Source: Jimgerdemannia flammicorona (Eukaryota). Taken from it: DNA of 42,948 nucleotides. The DNA lies in the NCBI GenBank assembly GCA_003990765.1, contig RBNJ01000083.1, forward strand, positions 1 through 42,948, in the 5' to 3' direction. Position 1 is the stretch's first letter, and the number at the start of each line of letters is the position of its first letter. A model generated the notes under the pieces. The model saw only the letters and a program-made list of their open reading frames with translations. It was not told the origin of the DNA and did not search any database. The translations under genes and the position numbers were made by a program. Positions 682-42,948 of the stretch are shown piece by piece.

Positions 682-2302
682 GGGTCGAAGCTGTGTGTCG
701 GTGCTCCAACCTATCTAAGCTAAATTTCAATGTATAAAGAGTGTCGTTGGATGTCATGTCAGAATATCTTCTGCTTCCTTCCGTCCCGTCGTGCATGACG
801 TAAATACAATGGGACACTGCCACACTTAACTCTCGCCATTTTTCAAAATGTAAGCATCATATGTTATATTTACTCTTCTCACTCACACCTTTCCTGAGGT
901 TGCCGTAAACGACAGTACGGAAAGGCAGGGTGGGTTCCAGCCCTTTGTGCACCGCTAATGAGTATGGCGCGCCAAATGTCGCCTCCTTGCCCTCGCCTAT
1001 GCAGGAAACACCATTTGGGGGAACGACCCTACATCACCCTCACTGAGAGGGAACGGCGACTTGGGATCAATAACTTAACGAGCAGAATGTTTTCTTTTTC
1101 GGGTAGAAACACTTTACCAAGGATCTCGAAACAACCTGTTCCCAACCCAATGCATTCCGACAAAGGCAGCACTGCTCAAGGATTTCTGAGTAACGATGGC
1201 AAATGGTCCCTATTAGGCCTATTGATGGCCAATGCACACGTCCTTGTGGTCATTCATACGGTCTTTGCTCTGCTTGTTTGGTGTCTCACACTTTGTAATA
1301 ACCCGGATTTCGCAACCAACAACGACATGTCATGCTATAGATCTACATACGCTTTGTCACTAAATAGCTTTTGAATTGATGGATAAACACCTCCCCGTTA
1401 TACCTTAATAAACTAAAATTTACTCAGGGACCAGCCGTTACAAAGGCTTGGGTTGTGAAAACCTCACTACATTGAACCACGTTTTAGAAGGACAGGAAAA
1501 TCGTACTCTTACACGCCCCTTTTGTCTTGAGCATAAATAATACTCTGGGGAGTATTCGTCGAAGATGTCCAAGTTGATTTCATAATAACAAACAATGCGC
1601 TTCCTCTGGGCTTTGCTGGTTGGAGTTGTCCTTGGGGCCTTAGGAGCTAGTGGTCAATTGCAGGACGTCTCTCCAACGCACATGTCAATGAAACGCATGA
1701 CGAGCAAGCATCCACCACACAATAATGACAGAGAAAGCGATGCCCATGAGGGAAGCCGCAATCCGTTTTTGGGCCAGTATTGGGAAGGGTTTCCCATTGG
1801 CATAAGTCGTCTGTATGTTTGTTTGGGTAGATCACAGAACTGCGTCTCAAAATGGCAATTCGCTCGAATTTGCTGCTACGCCACATACATTTGCAAACGG
1901 GGAACCCCTGCTTGACCTACGCTGTGGGGCACGGAGGATGTGCCCTGGCAAGGGTAGTTGATTGAAACACGACAGCTGGAAGCGAATATAAAGGGACGCA
2001 AACCAAAAAAAAGGGGGAAAGTAGCTGCAGTGAGTGCAGATAAAAAAAAATCCATTGGTCGCGCCAAAAGAGCAAGGGGCAAGATGGTCACGGATTGGTG
2101 ACGACAGTGTTTCATGTCATGAATTCGGACATCGCCAAGCCCAAGGCACGCGGTTGAATTTTGGATTCTTTGAAAGACTCTCTCTCCACTGACTGGATTC
2201 GAGTCTGCTTGTCACAACCACAACGCAATGAAGTCTCTCCAAAGAGACCCAACCTTTTCCTGGCAATCGTTGCCGACCCTAAAATGTACCCCTCCCCGCA
2301 GC

Positions 2303-10069: not shown

Positions 10070-10116
<47 letters not shown>

Positions 10117-11645: not shown

Positions 11646-12997
11646 ATGGGTAAAGACTACTATGCTATCCTCGATCTCAAAAAGAACGCCGACGATGATG
11701 CCATCAAAAAGGCTTACAGGAAGCAAGGCAAGCATTCTGGTATCACATATTTGTGCACACGCACCAACGCGTGATAACCAACACAAGTCTTACCTTCACG
11801 GCTCCCAAACCAAATAGCTCTAAAGTGGCATCCCGACCGCAACAAAGACAACGTTGAGACCGCTAAACGAAAATTCCAGGATGTTGGTGAGGCATTTGAA
11901 GTTCTGAGTGACCCAAACAAGCGCACCATTTATGATCAGTATGGTGAAGAAGGCCTCAAGGGAGTTCCACCTCAAGGTGCTGAGCCTGGCGGTGCCGCTG
12001 GCGCCTTCCCAGGCGGTTTCGCGAATTTCCCTGGCGGTGCCACTTTTACCTTCAGCTCGGGCGGACCAGGTGGATCTCGATTCCAACCCTTCCAGCCGAG
12101 AGACGCAGACGATATCTTTAAGTAATGAGCCCACATTTCACTTATATTATTGCGTCATTTGTACGTAAGTGGTCATTTCATTAACTGACGCTTGACCGTT
12201 TGTACAGAACATTCTTCGCTTCATTTGGCGGAGGGCAAGGGCAAGGGCAAGGGCAAGGGCAAGGGCAAGGGCAAGGGCAAGGGCAAGGGCATGGCATGAG
12301 TATGGGTATGGGTATGGGTATGGATGATGGTGAATTTGGTATACCAGGCGGGTTTGGCGGTATGTTCGGCGGTGGCATTCCGCGTGGTGGTGCGCCGGGC
12401 GGTGCTCGAGGTGGGCCTTCGTTCCGTAATGCACAGCAACAAGACGCTACCTCCAAACCGCCTGCGGTGAAGCGACCGCTTCCCTGTACTCTTGAAGAGC
12501 TGTATGCGGGTACCACCAAACGGCTCAAGGTCACGCGTCGCCTCATGGATGGAGCATCAGGTAAACCGATGGCGACGGACAAAGTGCTTACAATCAATGT
12601 CAAACCCGGATGGAAGGCTGGCACCAAGATTCGCTTCCCGAACGAAGGTGACGAGTTGCCGGATGGGACGACCCAGGATATCGAATTCGTACTTGAGGAG
12701 AAACCTCATCCAGTCTTCAAACGAGATGGCGACAATTTGCATATGACCATCGACCTTTCTCTTTTGGAGGCTCTCACGGGGTTCCAAAAATCGATCAAGA
12801 CGCTTGACGAGCGGAGCCTTAGCGTATCGAACGCGAACACCATTGTTCAACCAGGTGACGAGTCCCGTGTTCAGGGCGAAGGTATACCGAATTCAAAAAC
12901 TGGCAAGAAGGGGGACCTTGTCATCAAGTATAATGTCAAATTCCCATCTCAGCTAACGCCGGCTCAGAAGGAGGGTTTGAAAAAGGTGCTGGGCTGA
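11646..12997 (+). CDS. SIS1: Type II Hsp40/DnaJ co-chaperone (Sis1/DNAJB-like), 3 exons: 11646-11727, 11818-12121, 12208-12997
   Basis: [35 protein letters not shown]-domain, G/F and G/M linker, C-terminal [16 protein letters not shown]...[12 protein letters not shown]...[12 protein letters not shown], no zinc finger. Confidence 0.95.
12233..12286 (+). repeat. Coding microsatellite (GGGCAA)x9 encoding (GQ)9
   Basis: Perfect hexamer array in the G/F-G/M linker of the DnaJ gene. Confidence 0.95.
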
Positions 12998-13325
12998 TAA
13001 GACACTTTATAATCAGAAATGGGGGAGGGGGGGGTGACGGGGAAGAACTTCATTGAACGGTTCGTACCACGTATGGTGGTTTCGATTACTTTTTTGATTG
13101 AAATTTGGACCTATTAGTTTTCCGTACCGTTGGGGCAATCAGTATCGGGAAATCAGCTCACTACCGTTCAATGATTTGTGGCTAATGATGGCTAACGGTC
13201 CCTCTTGGTTATTTGATAATTGATGGATTGATGGTCAATGTACATGTCTTGTCTTCATTGCTCCATTTCATCTTGTCTTGCCTTGTTCCTTTTCGTCCTG
13301 AGATACAATAAAAATCCTCTCCCAA

Positions 13326-14138
13326 ATGACTCTTCTTTCTGTCCATCAAGCATCTAAACATCTCGGAGTCTCCTCCAGGACATTTCGTTGCTGGCACGCT
13401 CAAAGCCATTGAGGATGTCCTTCCCACGTCTTCCACCCAAACCTCCATCCAATTACACTTCACCCGACCTCTGGATCAGCCTGTGGCTATACCTATGTGC
13501 ATGTTTCAAGCCCAAAACAGCAGCAGGACCTCAAATGACAAAAATGGCACCTCCAGCAGCTCTACCCATCTTATTGCATTATTATCAATGTCACCAGTGG
13601 CATCAATTTTAAAAGACCTGGTCTTAAAATCTTATTGAAACTCTCATGTCAAGGGTTGCTAACAGAGGTAATACTTATCTTCTACTACTTACACACCTGT
13701 ATGAATATAATATTCATATCTCTTTCAACTTGATAGATCATGGTTGTCCACCATGACTGACTTTGTCACTTTACCTATAATCTCCTCAAACACATCTTCA
13801 TCCTCAATAGCACCAAGGTCATTATGGTTTATGCAGAGGATGACACATCGAACTCTGTAGCTCAAGAACTATCTGAGGACATTCTTGCAATCAATACTAT
13901 CTTCATCTACTAGATACAAGATTGAAGAGTAGTAAAAAACTGATAGTACTACAGGGACTAGCAGTAACAGCAAGGACAAGAGGAAGGTCAGGATAAGTCT
14001 GGTGTTTGTGAGGAAGAAGGACAACATATACAGTTTAATGAGAGTGATGAAGAGTAAGATATAGAGAGGTAGTAGATAGATTGTATTAAGCAAACTGAGT
14101 TGTGCAATAGTTATGAAAACTCAAGTTTTCATCATTGA
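13326..14138 (+). pseudogene. tnpA: IS607-family serine recombinase (TnpA) relic 1 with an intron at 13668-13736; 3' end approximate
   Basis: One frame reads MTLLSVHQASKHLGVSSRTFRCW (MerR-type HTH)...GYTYVHVSSPKQQQDLK*Q (cf. YARVSS.KQ..DL.RQ)...SGINFKRPGLKILL...GLLTE|IMVVHHD*LCHF (cf. VVAHRDRLCRF)...QELSEDILAINTIFI; stops arise mostly from transitions. Confidence 0.85.
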
Positions 14139-14546
14139 TTAGATTCAATCTACTGTTTTTATTAGCTCTGATATAACATGTTATAGACAAGTCCAGAAAA
14201 ATAGACAAATGAATTATATATACTCAGAACTGTATATTGTTCTTCTTCTTGACTGAGTTAAATAAGGATGCTTTTCTGTATAATTTTATATATATGTCTT
14301 ATATGTTTCTATATACAATTTTGCATTATGTCATACTATTTTCAATATAAATAATTAAAATTATAAGCTCTATACAAATTAACTATATCTCCTGAGGCCA
14401 GAATCCTAACACCCCAAGGACAATCCTTTTTCTCAACTCTTCTCTCCTATGAATCTATCTACTGATAAGGTCTTCATGATCATAATATCTTCTTACAATC
14501 TAGCTCCACCTCTACCTCTATCTCTATCTCTACCTCCACCTCCACC

Positions 14547-14957
14547 TAGTACTCTCAAATGAGTCAAATCAATTCGAATCGAATCGAATTGAGGGTTAAA
14601 CAAATCGAATCGAATTGGGGATTTTTCAATTTGAATCAATTTGAATCAAATCAAAAGTTGAATCAAATTGAGGGTCTAATTCAAATCCTAATTTTCAAAA
14701 TGCAATAACTCAGCATAAACTCATCCAAATCTAACATACTTTAGCTTGTTAGAATCACATTAATACGGTGAATCTAATAAGCTAAAATATGTTAAATTTG
14801 GATGAGTTTTCGTCGAGTTATTACATTTTGAAAATTAAGGTTTAAATCAAACTTACCTTTGATTCAATTTGAATCAAATCAAATTGGACCCTTGATTCGA
14901 TCAAATCGAATCAAGTTTGGGCCAAATTCAATTTGATTTGATTCATTGAGAGCACTA
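14547..14957. mobile_element. hAT-type MITE, copy 1
   Basis: TIRs TAGTACTCTCAA / TTGAGAGCACTA, 8-bp TSD CCTCCACC (14539-14546, 14958-14965), internal palindrome centred near 14763, near-identical to 39078-39460. Confidence 0.93.
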
Positions 14958-15291
14958 CCTCCACCTTCACCTCAATCTTTACTTCAATCTTAACCTCTAC
15001 CTTAACTTTAACCTCAACCTCCACCTCTATCTCTACCTCTACCTTAATCTCCACCTCTACTCCCATCTTAATCTCCAACTATAGTCCAGTCAAAGAGATA
15101 ATCAGACTTGCTATTTTTCATACACTTACTTGCCTTTTGGTATTTTTATATATTTTTACAAGTCTTGTTTAATTTATTCATATGTTTTACCTGCTATTTT
15201 TTTTTGTCTCCTGTTTAAATAATATTTTCATTCTTATATCTTTAAAAATCAACTATATTATATCTATATCAGTAACTTTAAAATAATTGAT

Positions 15292-15387
15292 TATACTAAG
15301 TTCAAGGTTTTTAAACTAAAGATAAAATGTAAAGAGCTCAGCCTAATAATCAATAGTATAAAGAAGGTATTAATTGACAGGCTATAG
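15292..15387 (+). pseudogene. SAP DNA-binding domain relic, part of a Pro-rich cargo gene spanning roughly 14400-15400
   Basis: YTKFKVFKLKIKCKELSLIINSIKKVLIDRL fits the SAP pattern L.V.ELK..CK..GL...G.K..LI.RL once transitions are reversed; (CCACCT)-like Pro-coding repeats lie upstream. Confidence 0.55.
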
Positions 15388-15639
15388 GACTTCTATAACA
15401 AAATGCTACAAACTTTATATTAAATAGTCAGTACTTCCAAAGTTTCAATATATATAGAAGGTTACTATTATTTTTTAATTTTTTAATATATATGAAATAT
15501 CAAATATGATATTACTAATCCAATTAACAGCTTATAAAAAAATAATTATTTCATTTATATACTTATATATCACTTTTTATTCTCAGTTATAAGTAAGTTT
15601 TCAGCCCAAACCAGTGGAAGAGACTCATCCTTAGAGCCT

Positions 15640-16074
15640 TACTAATACTCTTATATCAAGGAATAGTTATATAAGTGATGCTTTATAATGTTATTCTACT
15701 GTTGACATTCTTATTTAGCTATGAATATCATATTGACATCACTTTTGATTTGATGGATTGTGGTTGCCCACTAAGACCAACTTTATTACTTCATCAATAA
15801 TACTAAGATTATTATAGTATATTGAAAGGATGATATATCATCCTTTATATTTATTATCAATAAACTTACTCAGAGTATCTTCAAACAAGGATAATGACAA
15901 TGTTCAGCAGAAAACTGAAGGTGATGAAGAGAAGCAGAAGTATAAGATAGAGGTAAGGCTTACTTATGCTTGAAAGAAGTAGAAAGTAAAGAGAATAATG
16001 AAGAGTCTGAAGATACAGATCTATCTGAATATAAAGCAGAAGAAGCTGATGAAGAGATAGATAAGATATGCTAG
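15640..16074 (+). pseudogene. tnpA: IS607-family TnpA relic 2 (3' half) with an intron at 15675-15756 and an acidic tail overlapping the TnpB start
   Basis: YQGIVI*|IVVAH*DQLYYF...SAEN*R...EENNEESEDTDLSEYKAEEADEEIDKIC*-like tail; intron shares position and 3' sequence with relic 1. Confidence 0.7.
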
Positions 16075-17263
16075 ACTTATGTATAACATAGTCATTCAGG
16101 CATTTTAAGGTAAAGATCACTATACTACCTTTGCATATTTCTATACTCTGCTACATCAGTAGATCAATGATAGTATATGGGCTTTCATGACTGAAGTTTT
16201 ATATAATGTACTCAATAAGATGATGAAGAAAGTGATCCAAGCATGTGACCTCATTCAGCAGAGGAATCGAGAAGCATGAGAATCAGAATAGTGATATTAA
16301 TATTGACTCTTATTTCACTATTATAAGGAACTATATCAAATGATCACAATATGTTAGCAAAACTATTAAGAGTATCTTAAGTTCTATCCTCACATTCTTT
16401 ATATATATGTCATCACTACCAATGACCCTTCACATTCTCACTATAAGAATCTGACCACATATCCACCTCTTTATTATAAGCACTATAAGAAGAAATACAA
16501 TTAACTAAATCTAGAAAAATGGGTCAGCAATGATTTGAAGCTGATGTAGGATCAACAGTAGAGGTAATAGACCTTTATCTGGATCTATAAGAAGAATAGA
16601 GTAGTCTTCTTTAAGAACCAAGCAAAGGATCCTGATATCTATTCTCTAGATCTAAGTGTCTATACATTCCTGACATAGTACTCTTCTATCTATAGTTGTG
16701 GTAAGATAGATACAAAGAATGCACAAAGACTTGTTCACCTCTGTCTCATCCTCAATAATCTCATCTCCCAGACTGCTAAAGCCCCTACTCAAAAGCATAA
16801 TTCCATATACTGTACCCAGACTCATATATAGCAGTGAATCTGCAATCTTGTCAATGAGTACTACTGCAAGACTGTGCTCTAGCTCATCCATACCTTTGAT
16901 GTCATTATCATTCCTTCTTTCAATGATAGCCAGATAGCCATAAGGCACTATCAAAAGATCACCAGTAGGACAGTCCATTTGATGATGACATAGTCATATA
17001 GAAGGTTCAGAGAGAGGCTTTTGTCAAAGGCTGAAGAGTATAGCAAATAAGTATGTATGATCTCAGAGATATATACAAGCAAGACCTGCAATTGGTATGG
17101 GTGGATCAATCATAAGCTGGGTGGGAAGAAGGTATTCCATTGTCATGGGTGTGGCTTAAATATCAATAGAGACATCAATGGTGCATGTAGGATCTTTCTT
17201 CAGGCTTTATTGAATGATTGCATAGAAGGTAAGATATTCACATTTGACAAATTGATAATGTAA
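15998..17263 (+). pseudogene. tnpB: TnpB/Fanzor2 RNA-guided nuclease pseudogene (421 codons, single frame, multiple nonsense codons)
   Basis: MKSLKIQIYLNIKQKKLMKR*IRYARLMYN (OrfB HTH), WAFMTEVLYN, DIYSLDLSVYTFLT (RuvC-I, Asp at 16649), ICNLVNEYYCKTVL*LIHTFDVIIIP, TSRTVHLMMT*SYRRFRERLLSKA, SEIYTSKTCNWYG...FHCHGCGLNINRDINGA (zinc ribbon, RuvC-III). Confidence 0.92.
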
Positions 17264-17365
17264 GAAGGTTTTGGATGGCTTTTTGCAAGGTTGAATCTAA
17301 TGATGCCTTTATTTTTCTACATTACATAATTAGGGATCTAACGGAAAACATAGCTGCGACGACAA
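17150..17365 (+). ncRNA. Predicted omegaRNA region (scaffold to the right end at 17344, guide from 17345); 5' limit is a guess
   Basis: Position only: TnpB/Fanzor omegaRNAs overlap the ORF 3' end and element right end and take the guide from flanking DNA. No structure was confirmed. Confidence 0.35.
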
Positions 17366-17754
17366 TGGCAACAGCGCCAGGGTGGGGGGGGGGAAATGCG
17401 CGCCTGTGAGTTTGCCAGGCTTTGTTGGGTGGGACTGTCCTTAAGGGCACCAGTTGGGCGTGAACAGGCAGTGTTGGCTAGTAATGGCCAATGTTGTCTA
17501 TCAGTGTCCGACTCAATCCATCCGTATAATTGTGTCTAAAGTAGTTGACCACCATTGTTTTAGTTCCCTATAAATTGCTGTCTCGTTACCTTTATGCCAG
17601 TGCCCTTAAGGGGCGCGGTTCCCTAAAAGGCAAGCTTAGACATGGCAACCAGACCAACGGGCGCTGTTTCTTTGTTACCAGCGACCCTCTTTATCATTAC
17701 CAGACCCTTCTCCTAGTTCAACCTCCTAGCTCAACCCCCGACGCTCCTACTCTT

Positions 17755-31746: not shown

Positions 31747-32162
31747 CAGGGTGGTGTAAATAATTGAGCAAAATTTTGGACTGCGGCTGCTGACAACTTA
31801 GAGGTCTTGAATTTTAAATTTTGAAATCAAATGAAATATAAAAAAGAATTTTATAGAAGTTGTTTATTTATAAATATGGAATAATTTTATTTTTTTATTT
31901 TTAATTTGAGCTCAGTAGAGTTATAAAAAGAGAAATACTTATAAAGTATTATAATTATAATTATTAATAATTATAATCTTAATAAAATATATATTAAAAT
32001 AATAATAATAATAATAAGTTTATATTAGTATTTTAATAAAACTAATTTATCATTAATTTATTATGATTGAAATTTTAAAATTAATCTTATTTTAAGTTAA
32101 TAATTAGTTTATAGTCTAATAATATATCTTTTAACTTATTAAATATTTTTTACAAAATAATA

Positions 32163-32404
32163 ATAACCCTTAAGCTGTAATACAGGTAAATTTGTCTGCA
32201 AAAAAAAATAATATATAATTTTTATTTAAAAAAAATTTTTTACTAATAATATAAAGTTAAAAAAAAATCTAAAATATTTTTTAAAAATATTTTTCAAAAA
32301 AAAATTTTTTTAATACTTTTACTAATAAATATAAGATAAAAAAAAAAAAAAAAAAAAAAAAAAGAGGGCCCGTAAAAATCCTTACTACATAAACCTAAAA
32401 AAAT

Positions 32405-32443
<39 letters not shown>

Positions 32444-33373
32444 CTAAAAAAAAAAAACTAAAAAAAAAAAAAAAAAAAAAAAAAGATGAGCCTGTGAAAT
32501 CCTTACTACATAGACCCTATGAAATCTAAAATACAAAAAGAATAACTAAGATAGAAGGAGTTTCTCTAGAAGAAATAACTTAAGAAATAAATAAAAAAAT
32601 CAGTGAAATTCCAGAGAACCAAGACTCAATAAGGATAAAAAGAAGTAGCTCTATAAAAAAAGATTATGCTTTATTTACAAGAAGGTAGGACACATCTCTT
32701 TCAAATGTCTTAAGAAGAGAAACAAATTAGATAAATCTAGTAACTAGAACATCACTATTATTGGAGAAGGCCCAGGAAAGAAAAACTCTGAGAATATCAT
32801 TAGAGTATAAAAGATATAATACAAGACTACCATCCCCACTAAGGCCCATCTTATAGATATAGAATATAATCTCTACAGTAGCCAGGATCTTACAATACTA
32901 CTAAGTAGTGCTCCTAATGAAAACTTTAAATTGAATTAAGATCTAATTCAATTTAATTTGAGTTTTAATTTGAATAAAATCAAGTTACAATTCAAATTGA
33001 ATTCAAAGTTTGAATTTTGAATTAAATTCAAAATTCAATTTAAAATTCAAATCTAAATATAGTAATTCAAAACTCCCATATAATATAACTCACAACAATA
33101 ATATATATACACTCTTCTTAGCAATTAAGCAATAGGGTTACATAACCCTTAGACTATATATAACACAGGCAAATTTGCCTGCAAAAAAAAATAATATATA
33201 ATTTTTATTTAAAAAAATTTTTTTACTAATAAATATATATATAATAAAAAAAAATATTAAAAATATTAAAAAATTAATTTTTTGAAAAAAAAATTTTATT
33301 AAAAATTTATAATAAATATATAGTCAAAAAAAAAATTAAAAATTTAAAAATTTTTGCAGGCAAATTTGCCTGC
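32163..33373. repeat. Duplicated AT-rich element ends (about 32163-32330 and 33141-33373)
   Basis: ATAACCCTTA..ACAGG(T/C)AAATTTG(T/C)CTGCAAAAAAAAATAATATATAATTTTTATTTAAAAAAA occurs twice; palindrome GCAGGCAAATTTGCCTGC at 33356-33373. Confidence 0.75.
32906..33070 (+). mobile_element. Unpaired hAT-type terminus
   Basis: TAGTGCTCCTAA followed by TTGAAT/ATTCAA-rich subterminal repeats like those of the MITEs; no partner TIR found in the window. Confidence 0.6.
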
Positions 33374-33549
33374 AAAAATGAACAGCCAATTGGATAAGAG
33401 AGTATTATTGAAAATTTGAAATATTTCAAATTTGGGTGCGAAATCTGAAATATTTTGAATTTGGTTGTGAAATTTGAAAATATTTCAAAAAAAAACTGTG
33501 TCCTTGAAGTAAAAAATTTCTCAACTTTATATTCTTGTAACCTAAAATA

Positions 33550-34645
33550 CCATTGGCTGGAATCGACAATAGGGCTGAGAGGATGGGGCTTAGATAGATG
33601 AGAGATCTAGTAGACAGTATAATGGGTCTAGTGGTGGCCCCATTACTCAAGAAGTTGATCTTGGAGTTCACAGTTACTTTATACTTCAGAGGCTTAGCAG
33701 TAATAGCAAGAATGGTACTAGGGCTAATTGCTAAGTAGGTGGCTAGAGCTATATTCATGAAGTTCTTAAAGGGATTGGAAGGAGTGGAGGTTGGCTTTAA
33801 GGAGGCTGGACTATTGGAGAAAGTGCTGAAGACTGAGCTGACTATTGGGGAGGTGTGTATTCTAATGATGTACTGCTTGAGATGAGACCCCAGAGTAGTA
33901 CAGTTACTAGTAAAAGAGGTGCCCATGGTGACTGCTGAGGAGATGAGAAGAAGAATCAAGAAAGTCATGGCTGAGTATAGGGAGGTGGTTGATATTGAAT
34001 TCTGGGTCTAGGAGGGGACCTTATTCCAGACTGAGGATATTGATGTTCAGATTTGGTTAGCAGAGAAGGAAGCTACTGGAAAGGCTAGAGACTGGTCTTT
34101 GGGGTGGGGGAGGGGGATTGCTGGGAGGACTTAAGATCTCGGCTTGTAGGTGGAGTGAGTGATAGTTGGCTCACTGTAGGGTGGGTATTAGCAGTGTGGG
34201 TGGGACTGGCTGGACATTGGCTTTTTGTATTTGAGGAGGGACAGCAGATAGGGCTACAGGAGAAGGTATTATGGTGAGAGAAGTTGTTGGGGGATCTGCT
34301 GACTAGATGGTGGATGGATTGGAGTTCTTAGGGGGAGTGATGCCACAGTTTGGTAGTAAGGATCTGTGAACAGAGTAGTGGGAGAGTAGAGATAGTGTTA
34401 GACAAAGTAGCCTTTTGTCAGATAAGGGTAGGGGAGGGGGGCCCCCCCTAGGGGGATTAGATAGGGGGTAGATTCAATGTATTTATATGGAATAGATAGG
34501 CATAATAAAGGAAGGAAGTCCAAGTGACTATAAAAAAAAAAAAAAAAAAAAAAATACCTCAAAAGTGGCAAGGTATGTTGAAGATAAGCTACAAGAATTG
34601 GAGCCTTTTTTGAGCTGCAAGAAATAGAGAGTAAGGGAATAAAAC
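33550..34645 (+). mobile_element. Decayed non-LTR retrotransposon-like fragment (ORF1-like), host of the hAT insertion
   Basis: Stop-ridden frame VVQLLVKEVPMVTAEEMRRRIKKVMAEYREVVDIEFW; downstream poly(A)-containing units continue after 42755. Confidence 0.4.
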
Positions 34646-35529
34646 AGAGAGAGTAGTACTTCAAACAAGTCAATTTGAATCAAATCCAGATTTAATTTGC
34701 CACATAATGGTTTGATCCAAATCTCAAATTCAAAGCCATCTGAATCAACTTGGATTAATCTGAATTACTCTATCTGAATTACCCCATCTGAACCACCCCA
34801 TCTGAATTACTTAATCTGAATTACTCAATCTGAATTACTCAATCTGAATCACTTAATCTAAATTACTCAATCTGAATCCTTTAATTTGAATCCTCCAATT
34901 TGAATCCTCCAATTCAAATCCTCTAATTCAAATCCTCTAATTCAAATTCTTCAATCTGAATCCTCATCCAAATCCTTCAACTGAATCCTCTAATCTAAAT
35001 TCTCTATATGACTCATATGCTAGATATATTTATATATACAATATATATATATGTAAATATATATATGTATATGCAAATATACAAATACATATGTCAACAG
35101 ATCAGTCTTTAACAGTTCATAGTACTGATAATGCTTCAAGTTAAATATCTCTGATAGTTCTACACCTTTTATGCAATTCTCACTCCAAAATCTGGCAACA
35201 TTATGCTAAGATAGGAGATGATATTGTTTATAATTATTGTAGGTAAAAAATTAAGATACACCTATTCATATAACTGACACTTTTTGTTTAACATATATAT
35301 GATACTATTTCATCTACTCCCATAAACTGCACCAGCCAAAAGTTTAAAATATTTGGTGGTATAACTTCAAATATACATATATCAATATATAAAAGACAAG
35401 TATTCTGATAAAATCAAAAAGAATACAGAGACAAATAAAATCAACATCCAAGCTATGGTGGGTACATTTATCCAATTGTCTAACCATTTCTATACCAATA
35501 ACCTCATTTAATCAAAAATATTTAGCCAT

Positions 35530-38364
35530 ACTCTTTGGCAGAATTTCAAAATCAGCTCATTTGCTAGATTGTATGCACAGACCAGCCATTTACAACCATT
35601 AAGAGTGATCAATTGCATAGTATCTTTGGTCTCCTCAAGCATGATTTATATTTGCTAAATACTGATACTATTCACAAAGATGTCCTGGAGGCCTATAGGA
35701 AAGAGCATAACAATCTCTACCAGATACTTCAGATAAAATAAGAGCAGTACCATGATCTTTGCAAGCTTAATTATATATATTTTTTTATAAAGAGCTTACA
35801 AATTTAACCTCATATTCAATAAGTAGAATTTTGTAGGCAAAATTTTATTTATGATCAACACATGGATATTCCCCAATATAATTTTATTTCTAAGTATTAC
35901 TGATCATTAGATTGACCTCAATTGGTAGCTTAAATCTCTCACCCTTGACTTTGTCAAACTTGCTAGCCCTCATTCTGGAGACAACATTACAGATGTTTTT
36001 ATTAGTTATATCCAGGAGCTTGGAATCACAACTAAGGTAAAAAAGAAAGGCTTGCTGTCAGATTGGTATTTTGAGAGAGATCTTAAAACAAAATAGATTT
36101 TATTGGTTATTTATTTTTACATAAATTTGCTAACCAAATATTTCAAGTACAGATTTTGGCCATTATGATAGACAATGCTACAAATAACTCAATGTTTTTC
36201 CAAGTTTTAGCAGCCAACCTCAAATAGGAAAATATGGCCTTCAGTACAGAAAGCTGCCATATATACATAATACCAGACCCACATACTGAACCTCACTATT
36301 TAGAACTATCTTATATATATAGACAAAACATCTGAGAGAGGAGGGGCCCTGAGTATAATTTCCAAGCTATACAAACTAGTTGTATTGGTCTGATTGTCTC
36401 TATAACAATAAGATAAATTTGTTATATAGTATAGGGTAATCAGTTTAGCTCTAAAAGAGCTTATATTGGACATCTGTATATATTGAAACTCAATATTTAC
36501 AATGATCCAGCATGTGCTGGAGTTTGCTATGGTATGTGTTCTTTTTTCTTTGGTCAGCTGAAGCAACTTATTTCAGATGATTGAAGATTTTTTTTTTTAA
36601 AAAAAAACAAAAAACAAAAAAAGTCAATAGATTCAATAGTAGCTGTCAACAAGGAAATATAGGACAAGGCTCTAGGTGAAAGTAAGTAGGATGTACTTAG
36701 GAATATTATCAGAGTTTTGGAAGTAAGTAGTGATTATTCTGGCTCTATACTTGTTTGTCTGCCTCTATATAATATAATACCTCACCACATATAACTGTCA
36801 GTGTTTTGATGATTGTATGAAGGATATAGTCAAACAAATAACCTCAACAATAAGCTCTGCAATAACAGTATACAACCTTCTAATTGATTGGCTAGAAGAT
36901 AAGCTCAAGGATAGGCTAGAGAGTTGTGGTAATTTATGGTTAAGCCTAGATCAAAGAGATATGGAGGTTGCTCTAAGCAAGCTCAGAAAATACTGCTCCA
37001 AAACAGATACTACCATATACTCAATCAGTACAGGTATGTCGACATATAGTCATTATCTCTTTTAAAATAGAGAAACTCTTGCAAAAACTCACTCTCTTTT
37101 CTCTGAATAGTGCTGGATCTATACTTAAAGCTACAATACTATAAAGATCAGAGCTGGGAGCAGTACTTCATTGAGAGAATTAAGTAGATCTCTTTCTCCA
37201 CTACCTTACTGGTTACAATAGTTTGGTAGACAACCTTTTGAGTCCACTTTTCATAATTATTACCCCCTCTATCTTGGGTTGGTTTGCTGTACTTGTTGTA
37301 GAGCAGTAAGAGGGAGGTAATGGTGATGAGTTGTCTCTTTATTGGTATCAGATCAGTGTTTTCTCCACTTTTTCACAGTTTCTGATGTCTTTGGATATAT
37401 CTGGAGTATATTTGTTTTGATACAGTACCTTCTTTCTTTTGTTGTCACTAACAAGATACTGTCTCAGTATGTCTTGGGCTATATAGGGAGTTGGCCAATC
37501 TTAGGCATCAAGTGCTCAGTATAGATTACCTGCAGGTCCTCAGTATCTGTAGTAGGGCCCTCTGGTTTTGGTAAGCTTTCTGGTGAGTATAGTTCTGGTA
37601 TAGGTGACTGCTTTTCAGGTGTTATTGAGATGGGAGGGGAGATAGCCATCATAGATAAGAGAAAGGGTGATAATGGTGAACCAGTAGAGTACCAGACTGG
37701 GGGCAGTTACATATTGGGGCTGGAGTGGGTGCTGCTTTAGTGGGGCCTTTTGATTGGTACAGTGTGGTTAGGTAGTAGATATCACTCTCAACTTCTTTTG
37801 GCAATTTAGCAGGTTGGGCTCTGGTTATTAGGAGGAGTCAGAGAGTCCAAGACTACCTATTTCAGGCATCTTAGCTACACTCAACTAGAACTAGGAGCTG
37901 ATTAGCAATGTGATTGAGGCCTACAGGCTTGAGTAGTGGGGTATTGAGGGTCTCCTCCCATCTCACATATAAGTCCTTTACTCATCTTAACTGAGAGAAC
38001 CAGGCTCTATCTACTGTGTTGTACTTTGATGAGGGTTTTTCTTTGCCTGTCATTCTCTTTGGAGTGGCAGGGGCTATTCTATTTAGCTTAGGCATAGTCT
38101 TATATATATGTTGGGTTCTTAGATATATACTTTCAGTCATTGGCATATGGCTGGGTTTCCCCTGGTGATAGAGAGAGCATAGTGTACAGAATGAGATGTG
38201 GGTCAACATAGACCCTGCTGCACCTGATATAGTCAAGCTGCTGGACAATAGCTAGCCTAGATTAATGGAGAGGCAGTGCTTAATGGGTGGTGGGAGAGGG
38301 TTTTGGTCTATCTAGTCTAGGTTTCTTTCCAATAAAAATCCATGGAACATTGAGTCTATTAATA

Positions 38365-38397
<33 letters not shown>

Positions 38398-38890
38398 TCA
38401 AGTAGGCTATAATTGAAGTATACTGGAAAAACTATGCACCACTATAAGGTTCCAGCCAAAGTCTGGATGAATATGCCAAGGGATCCCTCCTATCCCACAT
38501 TTACTTTAGTAGAAAGAGGAAGAGGGAGCTGTTAGTGAAAGAGCTGTCATCAATAGATGAACTTATCATTTATCTTGCCAGCAACTATATGATCCTGCTG
38601 GAGGACATGGAGGTGCTTAACTGGTTTGTCAGACAGGTGTTGGGCCAATTTAATTCACCAATCTAACCACCACTCTACCTACTAGAGTATACAGCTGTAT
38701 CAAATGGACTTCTTCAGCCTATGTAGTATAGCTCAGAACTACCTGGTGATTTCTGCCTCCAGTACTTCCATTGAGCAGGTGTTCTCAGATGGGGTGGACC
38801 TTGTTGCCCCAAAGAGGTGTATACTGAATACTGAGATAATCTGGGTATATATGTATATATCTGAAGTCTTGGTGAAGCTTGGGCTGCTAA
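35530..38890 (+). pseudogene. hAT transposase relic with introns, interrupted by a LINE fragment
   Basis: ILFMINTWIFPN..FLSITDH*ID.NW*LKSLTLDF..LASPHSGDNI; IMIDNATNN; LILDICIY*NSIFTMIQ (cf. TRWNST); IAQNYLVISASSTSIEQVFS (hATC dimerisation domain). Confidence 0.88.
37188..38390 (+). mobile_element. 5'-truncated non-LTR retroelement insertion with poly(A) tail
   Basis: Poly(A) 38364-38390; 15-bp TSD GAGAGAATTAAGTAG (37173-37187) / GAGAAAATCAAGTAG (38391-38405) differing by two transitions; transposase-like sequence resumes afterwards. Confidence 0.8.
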
Positions 38891-39029
38891 AATTCAGTGA
38901 GTCTTAGGAATTCATAGATAAGTTAGTTGGCTTTATGGAATATTTAATACCTTTCAAAAATAAAAGAAAAAAAAACCTGAGAACTCAGCCCAGAGTTTGT
39001 AGCCCAAGTGGGGTAGTGGTCAGTGGAGT

Positions 39030-40000
39030 TGGTAGTAGTAGAGAGAGCATACAAAATTTGCAGCCCTCTACCAGCAGTAGTGCTCTCAAATGAGTCAAAT
39101 CAATTCAAATCGAATTGAATTGAGGGTTAAATGAGTCGAATCGAATTGGGGATTTTTCAATTTGAATCAATTTGAATCAAATCAAAAGTCAAATCGAATT
39201 GAGGGTCTAATTCAAACCCTAATTTTCAAAATGCAATAACTCAGTGTAAACTCATCCAAATCTAACGTACTTTAGCTTGTTAGAATCACATTAATACGGT
39301 GAATCTAACAAGCTAAATTACATTAAATTTGGATGAGCTTTCATCGAGTTATTACATTTTGAAAATTAAGGTTTGAATTGAACTTCGAATCGAATTGGAC
39401 CTTTGATTTGATTCAAATAGAATCAAATTGGACTCTTGATTCGATTTGTTGGGAGCACTAACCAGCAGTAAGGGGCAGTTTCAAGCTGTCAGTATCTCAA
39501 GCTATCAGTACTTGGGTCAGTAGGCAGGTTAGTGGATATGGGGTCAGTAGAGGGAGTATACAAAATTTATAGTCCTCTGCCAGCAGCAAGAGGCAGCCCC
39601 AAGTCATAAGTGTCTGGGATGGAGGGGTTGGCAGAGGAGGAGGGTAGATGGAGAGAGTATGTAAAATTTGTAGCCCTCTGTCAGCAGTGAGAGGCAGCCC
39701 CAAGCTGTCAGTGCCCAGGTCAGTAGGTAGGATCAGTTGGCAGGATTAGTGGGCATAGGGTTAGTAGAGAGAGCATGCAAAATTTGTGGCCCTTTGCTGA
39801 TAGCAAGGGGCAGCCCTAAGCCACAAGTGTCGAGATGAGCAGGGCAGACAGAGAGAGTGTGCAAAATTTGCAGTATCAGCAGTATAGAGCTCCCCCCAGC
39901 AGTCTGTGTCTGGGCCAGAGATCAGCAGAGTTGGTGAAGAGAGTATGCAAAATTTGTGGCCCTCTACCAGCAGCATAGAGATAGTCCCAAGCTACCAAGG
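39030..40000. repeat. Degenerate ~90-120 bp tandem units inside the hAT element
   Basis: Core GAGAG(C/T)AT(G/A)CAAAATTTG..GCCCTCT.CCAGCAG...GGCAGCCCCAAG recurs about six times; MITE copy 2 sits inside the first unit. Confidence 0.85.
39078..39460. mobile_element. hAT-type MITE, copy 2
   Basis: TIRs TAGTGCTCTCAA / TTGGGAGCACTA, 8-bp TSD ACCAGCAG (39070-39077, 39461-39468). Confidence 0.93.
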
Positions 40001-40374
40001 AGTCTGAGTCTGGGTCAGAGGGTACTTCTAGTGGTTAGAGGGTGCTTCTGGCAATCAAAGAGTACTTCTGGCAGTCAGAGGATATTTCTAACAATTAGAG
40101 GGTACTTCTGGCAGTTGAAGTCTACTACAGATTTGGACCCCATTACCAGTTTGGGTCCCATGGACACCCTGGTCCTGTGCCATAGCACCACACTAGTAGC
40201 ACTACAAGAGCAGAGCCAAGGGATCAGTAGGGCCCAGCATAATGACTAAACTAGTACTACAGAAGAGGTACCTGGCTACCAGCCTAATCTGTATAAAATG
40301 ACTGCTGAACCCTTATGAAAGATTGTCTAACCCTTACAAAAGATTGCCTAATTCTCATGAAAGATTGCCTAACC

Positions 40375-41600
40375 CTCACAAAAACTGCTCCACCTGCTGA
40401 TCCCAGGTCTTGATGAGCCTGTTATCCATTGTAAGTATAACAACTATTATGTCTGAGCTCTCCTCAAAGGTGATGATACCATAGTAATTATATGGTTAAA
40501 ATAGGATAGCTATATTGACTATAAATGGGACCCTGAAACCATAGGTGAGATTGTACAGACTCCACTACTATTCTCCCAGATTGGGTCCTTCCTTTCCAGA
40601 ATGTAGAACATTATTGGAGTGATGTCATTGTCTATATGTGTGGACAGAGAAACATTGTACCTAATATATTCTGATGTGATATAAGTATATGATTGGATGA
40701 ACCCTTGGCCCAGAACCTCATACTGCCAGGTTGTACTTGTGGATGTCTGCCCTTAGTCCAGCCCCAGGAGCCCTGGCTTGGAAACCTACCAGATAGACAG
40801 TATCCAGTCAGTCCTTTTTGCATATGGGGGGGCAGAAACCCCCCAGGCTACAGAAACCCTCTAGGCTATAGCACCCAAAAAAAGTAGAGCTCCTCACCTC
40901 ATACAGCATGCTAAATTGTGCCAAGAATGTATATATAGCTATACGGAGATCACTACCAAGCTGGCCTGCTATACACTCTACCAATCTGCTCAAAAAACTC
41001 CAGATCATAGCTGCTATTGCTATATAGACTGTGTCATGCTCATATATAGTTTGCTCTTTGATAGTACTTCTAAAGTTCTGGTAGGGGTACAGAATCTTGT
41101 GTATCCCTGAAATTGTATCAAAAAGAGTATATTGGTGAAGAGTGTAATTATCTAGAGAGGAGTAAAAAAAAGAGAGATGAGTGCAGGAGATTTCAGAACT
41201 CTGAAACCCACCCTTTGCCAGTATTACAGTATACTCAATTCCTGTCCAAACTCCCCCTCTTTGCTTTTTTTGCCCCCTCTTTCCTGCCATTCAGTATTTG
41301 ATACAATTCTCACAAATCTCATTGATATAGTAGTAAAGCTCATTGCTATAGAGGTTTCTTACCACCATTACAACTACCTCTCTACATTTATTAATAATAA
41401 TATAGTTCTCTTCATCATTGGTTACTCCTACTGATCAATAGACCTCTTGGTCAAGAACAATTAGCTCTAATTTAAATGTAGACCCCCAAGTCTTGATAAC
41501 AATGCTAGTACTACTCATACTGAACATATTGCTCTTGAATTTCTCTATTTGATCAGATATCAGATATAGTTGAACTCAGATAACTTTGAACTCTTCTTTC
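40375..41600 (-). pseudogene. Possible TET/JBP-like 2OG-Fe(II) dioxygenase cargo relic; limits approximate
   Basis: After an AG acceptor at 40661: YNVSLSTHIDNDITP (HxD)...WENSSG/LYNLTYGFRVPF..NIAILF*PYNYYGI (restorable to P..HHGT); one frameshift needed. Confidence 0.4.
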
Positions 41601-42764
41601 CAATGGAACTGAGCTCTGATCTGAGGGGCCAAGATAAGTATGCAGATGGGTTGCATACAGACAGATTGTATATAGACAGATTATATACAGACAGATTGTA
41701 TGTGGGTAAGTTGCATGCAGATGAGTTGTATGCAGATGTGGGTGTTTTTTAGGAAGAGACCACATAAAAAATAAAGTTAAATAAAACATAGAGATGGATA
41801 TTATAGAAAAAGAGTATAAGTGAATGAGTGAGTGAGTTATATGCCAATGAGTTATATACTAATAAGTTGCATAAGTTATATGAGTTGTATAAGATTGCTC
41901 ACAAAGGCTTATTTCTGTTCCTTTTGAGACATCTATCATACAATGCATTGACTCAACAGCTCAGCCACCAAAGATATATCTCATAATATCTGTTAGCCTT
42001 TCTTTATCTTCACCAGATATTGCAAATAAAGTCAGCAGATCTTACCATAGAGCTGTGGACCCTAAAAAAAGCATGAGGTAAATTGGGTTGTACTGGGGAA
42101 ATTTAAATAAATACAAGTAAATAAGTGAGCAACCTATATTTACTATTGACTACTCCAAAAAGACTGCCATATACATAACTGTGAGGTCTGTGAATTCTGA
42201 GGTCCAAAGGGCTGCTGTGAGTTATTGCCAGAATTCTCTCTCATCCCCACCATTGCCACTACCATCACTATTACCACTGTCATTGCCACTACCATTACCC
42301 CTTTGGCTCTTGATGAGTAGCTTGTATACTGCCTATATGAGAAAGAATCCAACATTATCAGCAGAGAGTGCATTACTATCTCAAATACTCTCTCTTTTGA
42401 TGATCATTGTAGAGTAAAAAATGAGTAGACTGGATCAATATATGATTAAGGACTACTGTTTTGTTTGCTTGTAATATGGTAGAAAAGAAAAAAAAATAAA
42501 GAAAAAGAATAAAGAAAGAATAAAAGAAGAGAGAGAATAAAAAAAAAGGTAATGTCACCAAAGTATAGCAGGAAAAAAAAAACAAGAGCAAAAATGAATA
42601 AAAGAAAGAGTGATGTTACCAAAGATTTCAATCTGAATGGATCAATCTAGATCAGATCATGAGACTAATCTGAGTTGATTTGAATCTATTACATGATGAA
42701 TCTGAATCAAATCTCATCTAGATCAACTCCATCTATTTGGAGCACTAAGAGAGAGTAAAGACTC

Positions 42765-42811
<47 letters not shown>

Positions 42812-42948
42812 CAGAGAATAGTTATAATAATATCTTGAGTAAGGAGTATGGACAGCTTTTTTGAAATGAGATATGTAGAAAATGAGCTGCAAGAAATTAG
42901 AGAGTGAGAGAATAAAGTAGTGAGAGCAAAGATCCTATAAAAAAAAAA

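Follow-up and report, generated by a model that had tools for sequence, protein, structure and literature searches.

A probable dead, composite IS607-type element with a Fanzor2/TnpB remnant in Jimgerdemannia flammicorona, with a likely right end and a possibly element-derived left side

In the bacterial IS607 family (H. pylori IS607, ISXfa1 and the C. botulinum IStron) a serine-recombinase transposase, TnpA, with a MerR-type helix-turn-helix (HTH) is followed by the nuclease TnpB, GG dinucleotides stand at the termini, and the right end, where the omegaRNA scaffold also finishes, reads ...CGG with the guide directly after it. We analysed a stretch of 42,948 nt of Jimgerdemannia flammicorona DNA (assembly GCA_003990765.1, contig RBNJ01000083.1, positions 1–42,948 of the forward strand), referred to below as the window, in which a CpG-depleted block between two copies of the heptamer CTAACGG carries remnants of a TnpA gene and of a Fanzor2/TnpB nuclease gene. 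On balance we lean towards reading positions 13199–17344 as a dead, composite IS607-type element whose right end can be placed and whose left side may be partly element-derived. Published elements are cited here from passages of the respective papers, and copy counts for the left end, the right end and Fanzor apply within the 42,948 nt of the window.

For the C. botulinum (Cbo) IStron the scaffold is reported to end in ...UCGG with the guide directly next to it, and its target-adjacent motif (TAM) is TGGG as opposed to TCGG at the right end (10.1101/2023.11.20.567912). ISXfa1 has a guide flanked by CGG at its right end and a TAM of GGG, not CGG (10.1101/2023.08.09.552727); in both elements this difference between left flank and right end at the base before GG spares the intact donor. 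The TAM of ApmFNuc, the Fanzor2 of a mimivirus IS607 element, is given as NGGG (PMC10530073). Elements that combine TnpA with Fanzor2 are known from giant viruses and from Acanthamoeba (PMC3627910, PMC3673617). Passages on the IS607-like elements ACa-1 and ACa-2 of Acanthamoeba castellanii report neither terminal inverted repeats nor target-site duplications (TSDs) (PMC3627910), and copies of eukaryotic IS607-like sequences are described as having flanking homology in common (PMC3673617).

The locus studied here is like the bacterial elements in its gene order, in the GG at its proposed termini and in a right end finishing in ...CGG. Unlike them it lies in a eukaryotic nuclear context, has a putative GT-AG intron in TnpA, ends in ATCTAACGG rather than TCGG, carries the right-end heptamer instead of a GGG-type TAM in its left flank and appears to be dead and composite. 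With the giant-virus IS607-Fanzor2 elements (mimivirus ApmFNuc/ISvMimi and families from IMG/VR) it shares a right end a few tens of nucleotides past the nuclease stop codon, but viral right ends have the form A-rich-NNN-ATCGG, viral left flanks carry a purine before GG, and the right-end word recurs at the left in none of seven viral copies. Conservation in the mimivirus element is reported to reach 200 nt beyond the open reading frame (ORF), compared with 78 nt here. Like this locus, the A. castellanii elements combine TnpA with Fanzor2; they are intact, and the passages describing them (PMC3627910, PMC3673617) report no evidence of transposition, whereas the present copy is hypermutated and intron-bearing and has a mappable right end, which is what it adds to the known element type.

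The CpG-depleted block and its coding remnants

An initial annotation of this DNA had noted CTAACGG at both edges of a CpG-depleted block, and this was confirmed. The heptamer occurs exactly twice in the whole window when both strands are searched, both times on the forward strand, and the CpG observed/expected ratio (o/e) between the two copies is 0.16 (18 CpG in 4,139 nt), compared with 1.03 and 0.93 in the 5 kb flanking the block on the left and on the right. Two occurrences are not an over-representation (3.29 ± 1.95 expected; at least two in 81 of 100 shuffles). The right edge of the CpG loss is sharp, with the last internal CpG at 16268, the next at 17342 within the heptamer and further ones at 17357, 17360 and 17375. 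The left edge, in contrast, is diffuse, six CpGs remaining at 13294, 13364, 13386, 13397, 13427 and 13465. What the placement of the heptamers says about chance depends on how tightly the edges can be fixed without the motif: among pairs of small segments placed 4,146 nt apart elsewhere in the window, a direct 7-mer was common to 66 of 5,484 (1.2%) at ±10 nt, 180 of 5,482 (3.3%) at ±15 nt, 554 of 5,479 (10%) at ±25 nt and 1,363 of 5,475 (25%) at ±40 nt. Because background sharing ranges from 1.2 to 25% with the tolerance allowed, the placement is suggestive, not compelling. At these rates a chance match, one alternative that the initial annotation had named, keeps some weight; a plain TSD, the other one, is unexpected since serine recombinases make none.

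The nuclease frame matches Pfam PF07282 (E 1.3e-15) and 4,568 proteins of a representative library at E <= 1e-3, the best of them at E 7.7e-61 with 38% identity, and the best matches carry HTH_OrfB, OrfB_IS605 and TNB domains. Residues 1–383 of the library protein P0007, its HTH_OrfB_IS605 domain included, align to 16013–17224. In the remnant we recognize SLDLSVYTF (DPGVRTF in relatives), SEIYTSKTC, C..C and NRDINGA; the RuvC-I DPG context, the zinc finger, the RD motif and the N-terminal HTH of Fanzor2 proteins are thereby all found. As in IS607 elements, this TnpB-type nuclease lies downstream of TnpA on the same strand (15995–17227, +). A tblastn search with 37 of the library matches gave 38 alignments, all of them within 15,500–17,500 (15995–17227 among those listed), and the window therefore holds one Fanzor copy; a word-indexed protein search with a 70-aa piece of the frame returned three candidates, none of which was scored. 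Stop codons without frameshifts, together with the loss of CpG, point to decay by C-to-T point mutation, which may have been driven by deamination of methylated sites or by a process like repeat-induced point mutation (RIP).

The TnpA remnant matches the NCBIfam model NF033518 (transpos_IS607) at E 6.8e-7 with 29 bits, which is under the curated cut-off of 110 as expected for a decayed copy, and the Pfam families Resolvase (E 0.012) and HTH_23 (E 8e-4). The locus thus carries the kind of TnpA known from IS607, a serine recombinase with a MerR-type HTH at its N terminus. Three viral IS607 TnpAs with 26–33% identity to the remnant align from 13335 or 13347 to 13904 (E 4e-17, 1.5e-13 and 1e-10). 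Since a 23-codon gap in each of these alignments coincides with a GT...AG interval, 13669–13737 is read as a spliceosomal-type intron in TnpA.

Part of TnpA is found a second time further to the right. Between 13602–13859 and 15609–15849 we counted 155 matches, 47 transitions, 26 transversions and 43 gap columns, and because C-to-T decay alone does not yield so many transversions, the two pieces are read as diverged copies and not as a recent internal duplication. About 1.7 kb of microsatellite, AT-rich DNA and a miniature inverted-repeat transposable element (MITE) separate the left part from the right part. A left end of the right-hand copy was sought by comparing 13150–13601 with 15050–15608; the score was not significant (56 vs 46.4 ± 7.5). 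The left part (left end and TnpA, ~13199–13950) and the right part (mid-TnpA through Fanzor to the right end, 15609–17344) may hence represent two diverged versions, and 13199–17344 as a whole would be the remains, decayed by point mutation, of a eukaryotic IS607-type transposon in which an intron-bearing TnpA was followed by Fanzor2/TnpB. The surroundings of the block look eukaryotic, with introns, long poly(A) and poly(T) tracts and MITEs.

The likely right end and the putative guide position

For comparison, 80 related loci (L119–L198) were fetched from viral contigs via alignment of the best Fanzor matches; the proteins used to retrieve them are those to which the Fanzor remnant aligns. 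In four viral families the copies lie at differing sites and the homology between copies stops cleanly, which allowed their ends to be mapped. These families comprise 13 end-mapped copies (five in family F1, two in L150/L195, four in L153/L157/L159/L181 and two in L140/L141), and the families mapped from IMG/VR include the L137 group, L150/L195 and the L153/L157 group. For three of the four, a 197-aa TnpA with MerR-HTH and Resolvase domains together with TnpB confirms the IS607 type.

A right end at 17344, directly behind the right-hand CTAACGG, is likely. CpG and GC content shift sharply at 17337–17357, and a terminus ...CTAACGG^17344 (^ marks a junction) agrees with the ...CGG^ termini of IS607 elements and of the viral relatives, which supports the initial annotation on this point. 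All 13 end-mapped viral copies finish in ...ATCGG^ and their flanks diverge directly after it; the relatives' right end takes the form of a hairpin (TTAAC/TTAGC arms), an A-rich linker, NNN and ATCGG. The terminal 9-mer ATCTAACGG matches that of family F1, ATCTATCGG, at eight of nine positions. Of the 80 viral loci, 33 have an ATCGG between –10 and +75 nt relative to the nuclease stop codon, and in the 28 loci left after near-identical ones were removed the distance from stop codon to ATCGG has a median of 24 nt (range 4–67), compared with 78 nt here. We found no further right-end copy in the window.

By analogy with the characterized elements, the right CTAACGG would be the element's right terminus, the omegaRNA scaffold would end in its ...CGG, and the GG would be the dinucleotide at which the recombinase crosses over. 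With a right end at ...CGG^17344 the guide-equivalent flank would begin AAAACATAGC at 17345, the start that had been predicted, and the 20 nt past the terminus (AAAACATAGC...) may be read as the guide.

Other features of the right flank and of the viral right ends are recorded here in their own right. The right flank resembles 1594–1638 at a score reached by three to four of 200 shuffles, a signal that is gone under other gap costs. Two further ideas, that 17393–17537 in the right flank is a third left-end-like copy and that the flanks form a long direct repeat, were rejected: scores as high came up in 46 of 1,000 shuffles and in 19 of 223 tiles, in 17–43 of 1,000 shuffles and in 91–99 of 500 shuffles. 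Within 17480–17575, upstream of an ATG near 17643, lie GGCCAATG (17486–17493) and TATAAAT (near 17568), which look like the CCAAT/TATA promoter of a downstream gene; a promoter here might account for a lack of methylation in the right flank up to the end of the element. The viral right-end region L157:5600–5700 holds, ~60 nt ahead of the ...ATCGG terminus, GCTAACGG, the 8-mer of 13191–13198; as the sister copy L153 lacks it, the match is probably coincidental.

The left side and its competing readings

The initial annotation had placed the left end at 13198^13199, behind the first CTAACGG. The window contains one other left-end copy, at 1171–1278, and aligning the two shows that homology on the left side does not stop at GG^TCCCT: it runs on to the left of the heptamer over 36 nt or more. 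The alignment of 13163–13287 with 1171–1278 scores 71 (25.1 ± 3.6 in shuffles, 0 of 200 as high), and the 59 nt left of the junction (13140–13198), searched alone, score 36 (19.7 ± 2.8, 0 of 200). A 17-mer across the junction recurs as GATGGCAAATGG^TCCCT with two mismatches, where 0.04 matches are expected. Under looser gap costs the alignment extends leftward to 13120–13154; on the right it ends near 13287, homology being absent beyond. Since the only other left-end copy runs past the heptamer, an outcome that the initial annotation had listed as refuting it, the predicted left end is not supported. Over 107 aligned positions the fragment and the large copy show 15 transversions, and indels besides, and when a right end was sought for it by comparing 1265–1312 with the right-end region, the score was 14, with 873 of 1,000 shuffles as high.

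The junction at 13198^13199 also departs from IS607 practice in other respects. GG is present at both 13197–98 and 17343–44, yet a 7-nt direct repeat together with a 5-nt inverted match is unexpected for IS607. The right end ...AACGG fits the family; the left flank, also ...AACGG, has a C before GG, and the other left-end copy does not show the same end position with an unrelated flank. The seven mapped viral left junctions have only GG and a preceding purine in common: GG is preceded by a purine in 7/7 and by C in 0/7, as against C in 13/13 viral right ends. A TAM ending in ACGG or CGG, as had been proposed, is unlikely, because CTAACGG on both sides erases the distinction of self from non-self and would make the intact donor a target. 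To judge from these relatives, C before GG is a mark of the right end ('self') and not of the target, and the real TAM of the lineage is more likely a purine followed by GG.

In the explanation that we favour, the left CTAACGG would be neither host target nor TAM, as it lies within at least 36 nt that travel with the left end at a second locus. The DNA just left of 13199 might itself be element-derived: it might be a right-end-like tail that abuts the left end, as would arise from a circular intermediate or by head-to-tail insertion, or else the outer part of the left end. The segment 13163–13198 holds CTAATGATG and CTAACGG, which follow one another in this order in the right-end region too, and three blocks (GTTSAAT, CTAATGATG and CTAACGG) are collinear between 13150–13198 and the right-end tail; under gap-tolerant scoring 12–24 of 1,000 shuffles reach as high. 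It is possible, if rather improbable, that 13163–13290 and 1171–1278 are both preserved junctions of right end and left end, the 36 nt or more ahead of the left end being right-end tail. Such junctions would be footprints of a circular intermediate with abutted ends or of a head-to-tail insertion at the right-end GG of a resident copy.

Several observations weigh against the favoured explanation. Just one other left-end copy is present in the window. The left segment resembles the right-end tail only weakly, ordinary gap costs giving 92 of 1,000 shuffles as high, and the fragment at 1160–1206 shows no resemblance to that tail. The terminal 5-, 6- and 7-mers of the right end are absent from the left end (first 130 nt) and from the 60-nt left flank in 7/7 viral copies, so that the repeat seen here has no precedent among the relatives; this absence counts equally against the tail, against a longer left end and against a target that mimics the right end. 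To the right of 13198 stands GG-N14-TTGATA with the spacing of the viral relative L153 (TTGATRR repeats occupy 13213–13234), and differences of C-to-T type from the 1171 fragment number 7:1 right of 13199 and 2:3 left of it (one-sided p ~0.12). Spacing and asymmetry together favour a real junction at 13198^13199. On the right side, the full right-end profile of the relatives matches over its first 41 of 118 positions only, at 17169–17208, and tail-only profiles do not rank 17338–17344 or 13192–13198 among their top matches. Folding of the last ~200 nt, which the initial annotation had suggested as a check, did not point to a structured end: for the last 195 nt the fold is poorer than in randomized sequence (z = +1.53), 192 of 200 shuffles doing as well or better. 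In the relatives' right ends RNAalifold found only a 3-bp stem, scans for Rfam families and tRNAs returned nothing relevant, and no omegaRNA fold appears to survive.

The initial annotation amounted to a single IS607 insertion at 13199–17344 into a host target that ended in CTAACGG and happened to resemble the right end, with a TAM of ACGG or CGG, a guide AAAACATAGC and an empty site GCTAACGG^AAAACATAGC. This is unlikely, although GG stands at both junctions, both CGG and GGG are reported as insertion sites of IS607, and a shared heptamer would be found in just 1.2–3.3% of background pairs if the edges are fixed to ±10–15 nt; the GG-N14-TTGATA inside the proposed left end, as in L153, and the transition asymmetry that starts right of 13199 (7:1 vs 2:3) speak for it as well. 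The homology with 1171–1278 extends at least 36 nt beyond its junction. Similarity between target and right end is an unlikely rescue, because published IS607 targets are described as sharing nothing past (G)GG (PMC6188088), and the 60-nt left flanks of the seven viral copies, from three families, never contain a terminal 5- to 7-mer of the right end. The same heptamer on both sides would also remove the difference at position –3 by which Cbo and ISXfa1 tell self from non-self. The left CpG edge is diffuse, and the left end lies on one copy whereas Fanzor and the right end lie on the other, diverged one, so that neither a single insertion with a single empty site nor the proposed empty allele is established. 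If instead the left end started at ~13150–13163, CTAACGG at 13192 would be an internal subterminal word that merely happens to end the right end too, and the true left flank would be ...CAGTATCGGG with a TAM of GGG type, which would suit the published TAMs. Homology to the second fragment does begin at 13163 (or at 13120–13154 under looser gap costs), the ends of IS607 are described as carrying several short motifs inside the termini (PMC6188088), and the heptamer lies within a tandem motif, TGGCTAAYG, present twice at 10-nt spacing; three copies of ATKGATGGYYAA, at 13174, 13184 and 13227, lie on both sides of the heptamer. We regard such a longer left end as doubtful, given that the two copies have no GG in the same register where their homology begins, that ATKGATGGYYAA was derived from this same region and is not enriched in the window (33 found vs 27.7 expected), that 13163–13198 shows no excess of C-to-T change, and that the viral relatives repeat the terminal word of the right end inside the left end in 0/7.

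The fragment 1171–1278 could also be a duplicated piece of this locus, flank and left end together, produced by segmental duplication or as repair filler; it would then be uninformative on the ends, and the heptamer would be due to chance or TSD-like. Flanking homology among eukaryotic IS607-like copies was read as segmental duplication and not as transposition (PMC3673617), the fragment has no TnpA, Fanzor or right end alongside, and 10–25% of background pairs share a 7-mer if the left edge is fixed only to ±25–40 nt. A 5-nt inverted match just inside the heptamers, TCCCT and AGGGA, would make short inverted ends TCCCT...AGGGAT. We nevertheless judge this to be quite improbable: a serine recombinase makes no TSD according to the published descriptions (PMC3627910, PMC6188088), a right terminus in ...CGG suits IS607, and the transversions (15 in 107 positions) and indels noted above indicate that the fragment is old or belongs to another subfamily.

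Two other resemblances were discarded. The right flank of viral locus L170 starts with TCCCTAGTAGG like the left end here, which we take as a coincidence, as L170's own left end does not. A degenerate junction pattern hit 118 metagenome loci that were taken as chance matches (best extended score 50 vs 34 for the pattern alone); none of the 118 had a Fanzor match by tblastn at E <= 1e-5.

Neighbouring features and implications

The features of the locus are collected in Table 1.

Table 1. Coordinates of element remnants and associated features in the window (^, junction)
Feature	Position	Strand	Remarks
Second left-end-like fragment	1171–1278	+	GATGGCAAATGG^TCCCT...; not CpG-decayed; without adjoining TnpA, Fanzor or detectable right end
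Segment left of the junction	13163–13198	+	36 nt, 27/36 identical to 1171–1206
Left CTAACGG	13192–13198	+	GG at 13197–98 is one candidate left crossover; within the segment recurring at 1171–1206
Left end/5′ untranslated region	13199–13325	+	Starts TCCCT; homologous to 1207–1278 up to ~13287
TnpA exon 1 remnant	13326–13668	+	MerR-type HTH and serine-recombinase catalytic region (YVHVSS); 2 in-frame stops
Putative TnpA intron	13669–13737	+	69 nt, GT...AG; 23-codon gap vs three viral IS607 TnpAs
TnpA exon 2 remnant	13738–13930	+	Viral TnpA alignments extend to 13904
MITE-like insertion	14547–14960		Long internal hairpin; BLAST covers 14547–14901; right limit ~14960 set by eye from terminal inverted repeat
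Second, diverged partial TnpA copy	15609–15950	+	End of exon 1, intron, into exon 2; homologous to 13602–13950
Fanzor2/TnpB remnant	15998–17266	+	Single frame, no frameshift; 21 stop codons in 16091–17263 including the terminal one
Match to 5′ part of viral right-end/omegaRNA profile	17169–17208	+	E 4e-6, model positions 2–41 of 118; overlaps RuvC-III coding sequence
Right CTAACGG	17338–17344	+	Most likely right-end terminus, ...ATCTAACGG^; 78 nt past the Fanzor stop codon
Right flank, AAAACATAGCTGCGACGACA	17345–17364	+	Would-be guide if the right end is 17344, by analogy with characterized IS607 scaffolds

The MITE sits within a CTCCAC-type microsatellite (14492–14546 and 14955–15092) and has terminal inverted repeats AGTRCTCTCAAATGAGTCAAATC...; a second copy at 39078–39445 is 88.6% identical over 368 nt. 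Against plant microRNA-precursor models it gave sub-threshold matches only, for example MIR6440 with 42.6 bits vs a gathering score of 95. That second copy lies in another, larger CpG-poor and AT-rich region at 32000–42948 (CpG o/e 0.05, 17 CpG in ~10.9 kb), which also holds long poly(A) tracts and 14-nt and 20-nt tandem repeats (34743–34924 and 40015–40134) and is probably a cluster of decayed repeats. Upstream of the element, the ORF 12200–12997 (+), a gene that we take to be DnaJ-like from its C-terminal sequence, contains a perfect (AGGGCA)n hexanucleotide run (12232–12297) that may encode a Gly-rich linker. Uninterrupted tracts of more than 40 nt are the poly(T) at 10072–10115 and the poly(A) at 42767–42808.

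IS607 elements with Fanzor2 are a link from bacterial TnpB to the RNA-guided nucleases of eukaryotes. An intron in the transposase and death by C-to-T hypermutation would speak for a long residence in a eukaryotic nucleus and for silencing of the element by its host. At present the window yields the right end and so the position of the guide only, and the left end needs more copies; the viral set, with its ...ATCGG^ right ends and its purine before GG in the left flank, can be reused for annotating such elements. If the segments at 13163–13290 and 1171–1278 were preserved junctions of right and left end, they would be direct sequence evidence that IS607 transposed by the serine-recombinase pathway in a eukaryotic nuclear genome, evidence of a kind that an earlier survey of eukaryotic IS607-like sequences did not find (PMC3673617). 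From mapped ends one could read how TAM and guide are specified in a Fanzor2 lineage that is cellular and not viral.

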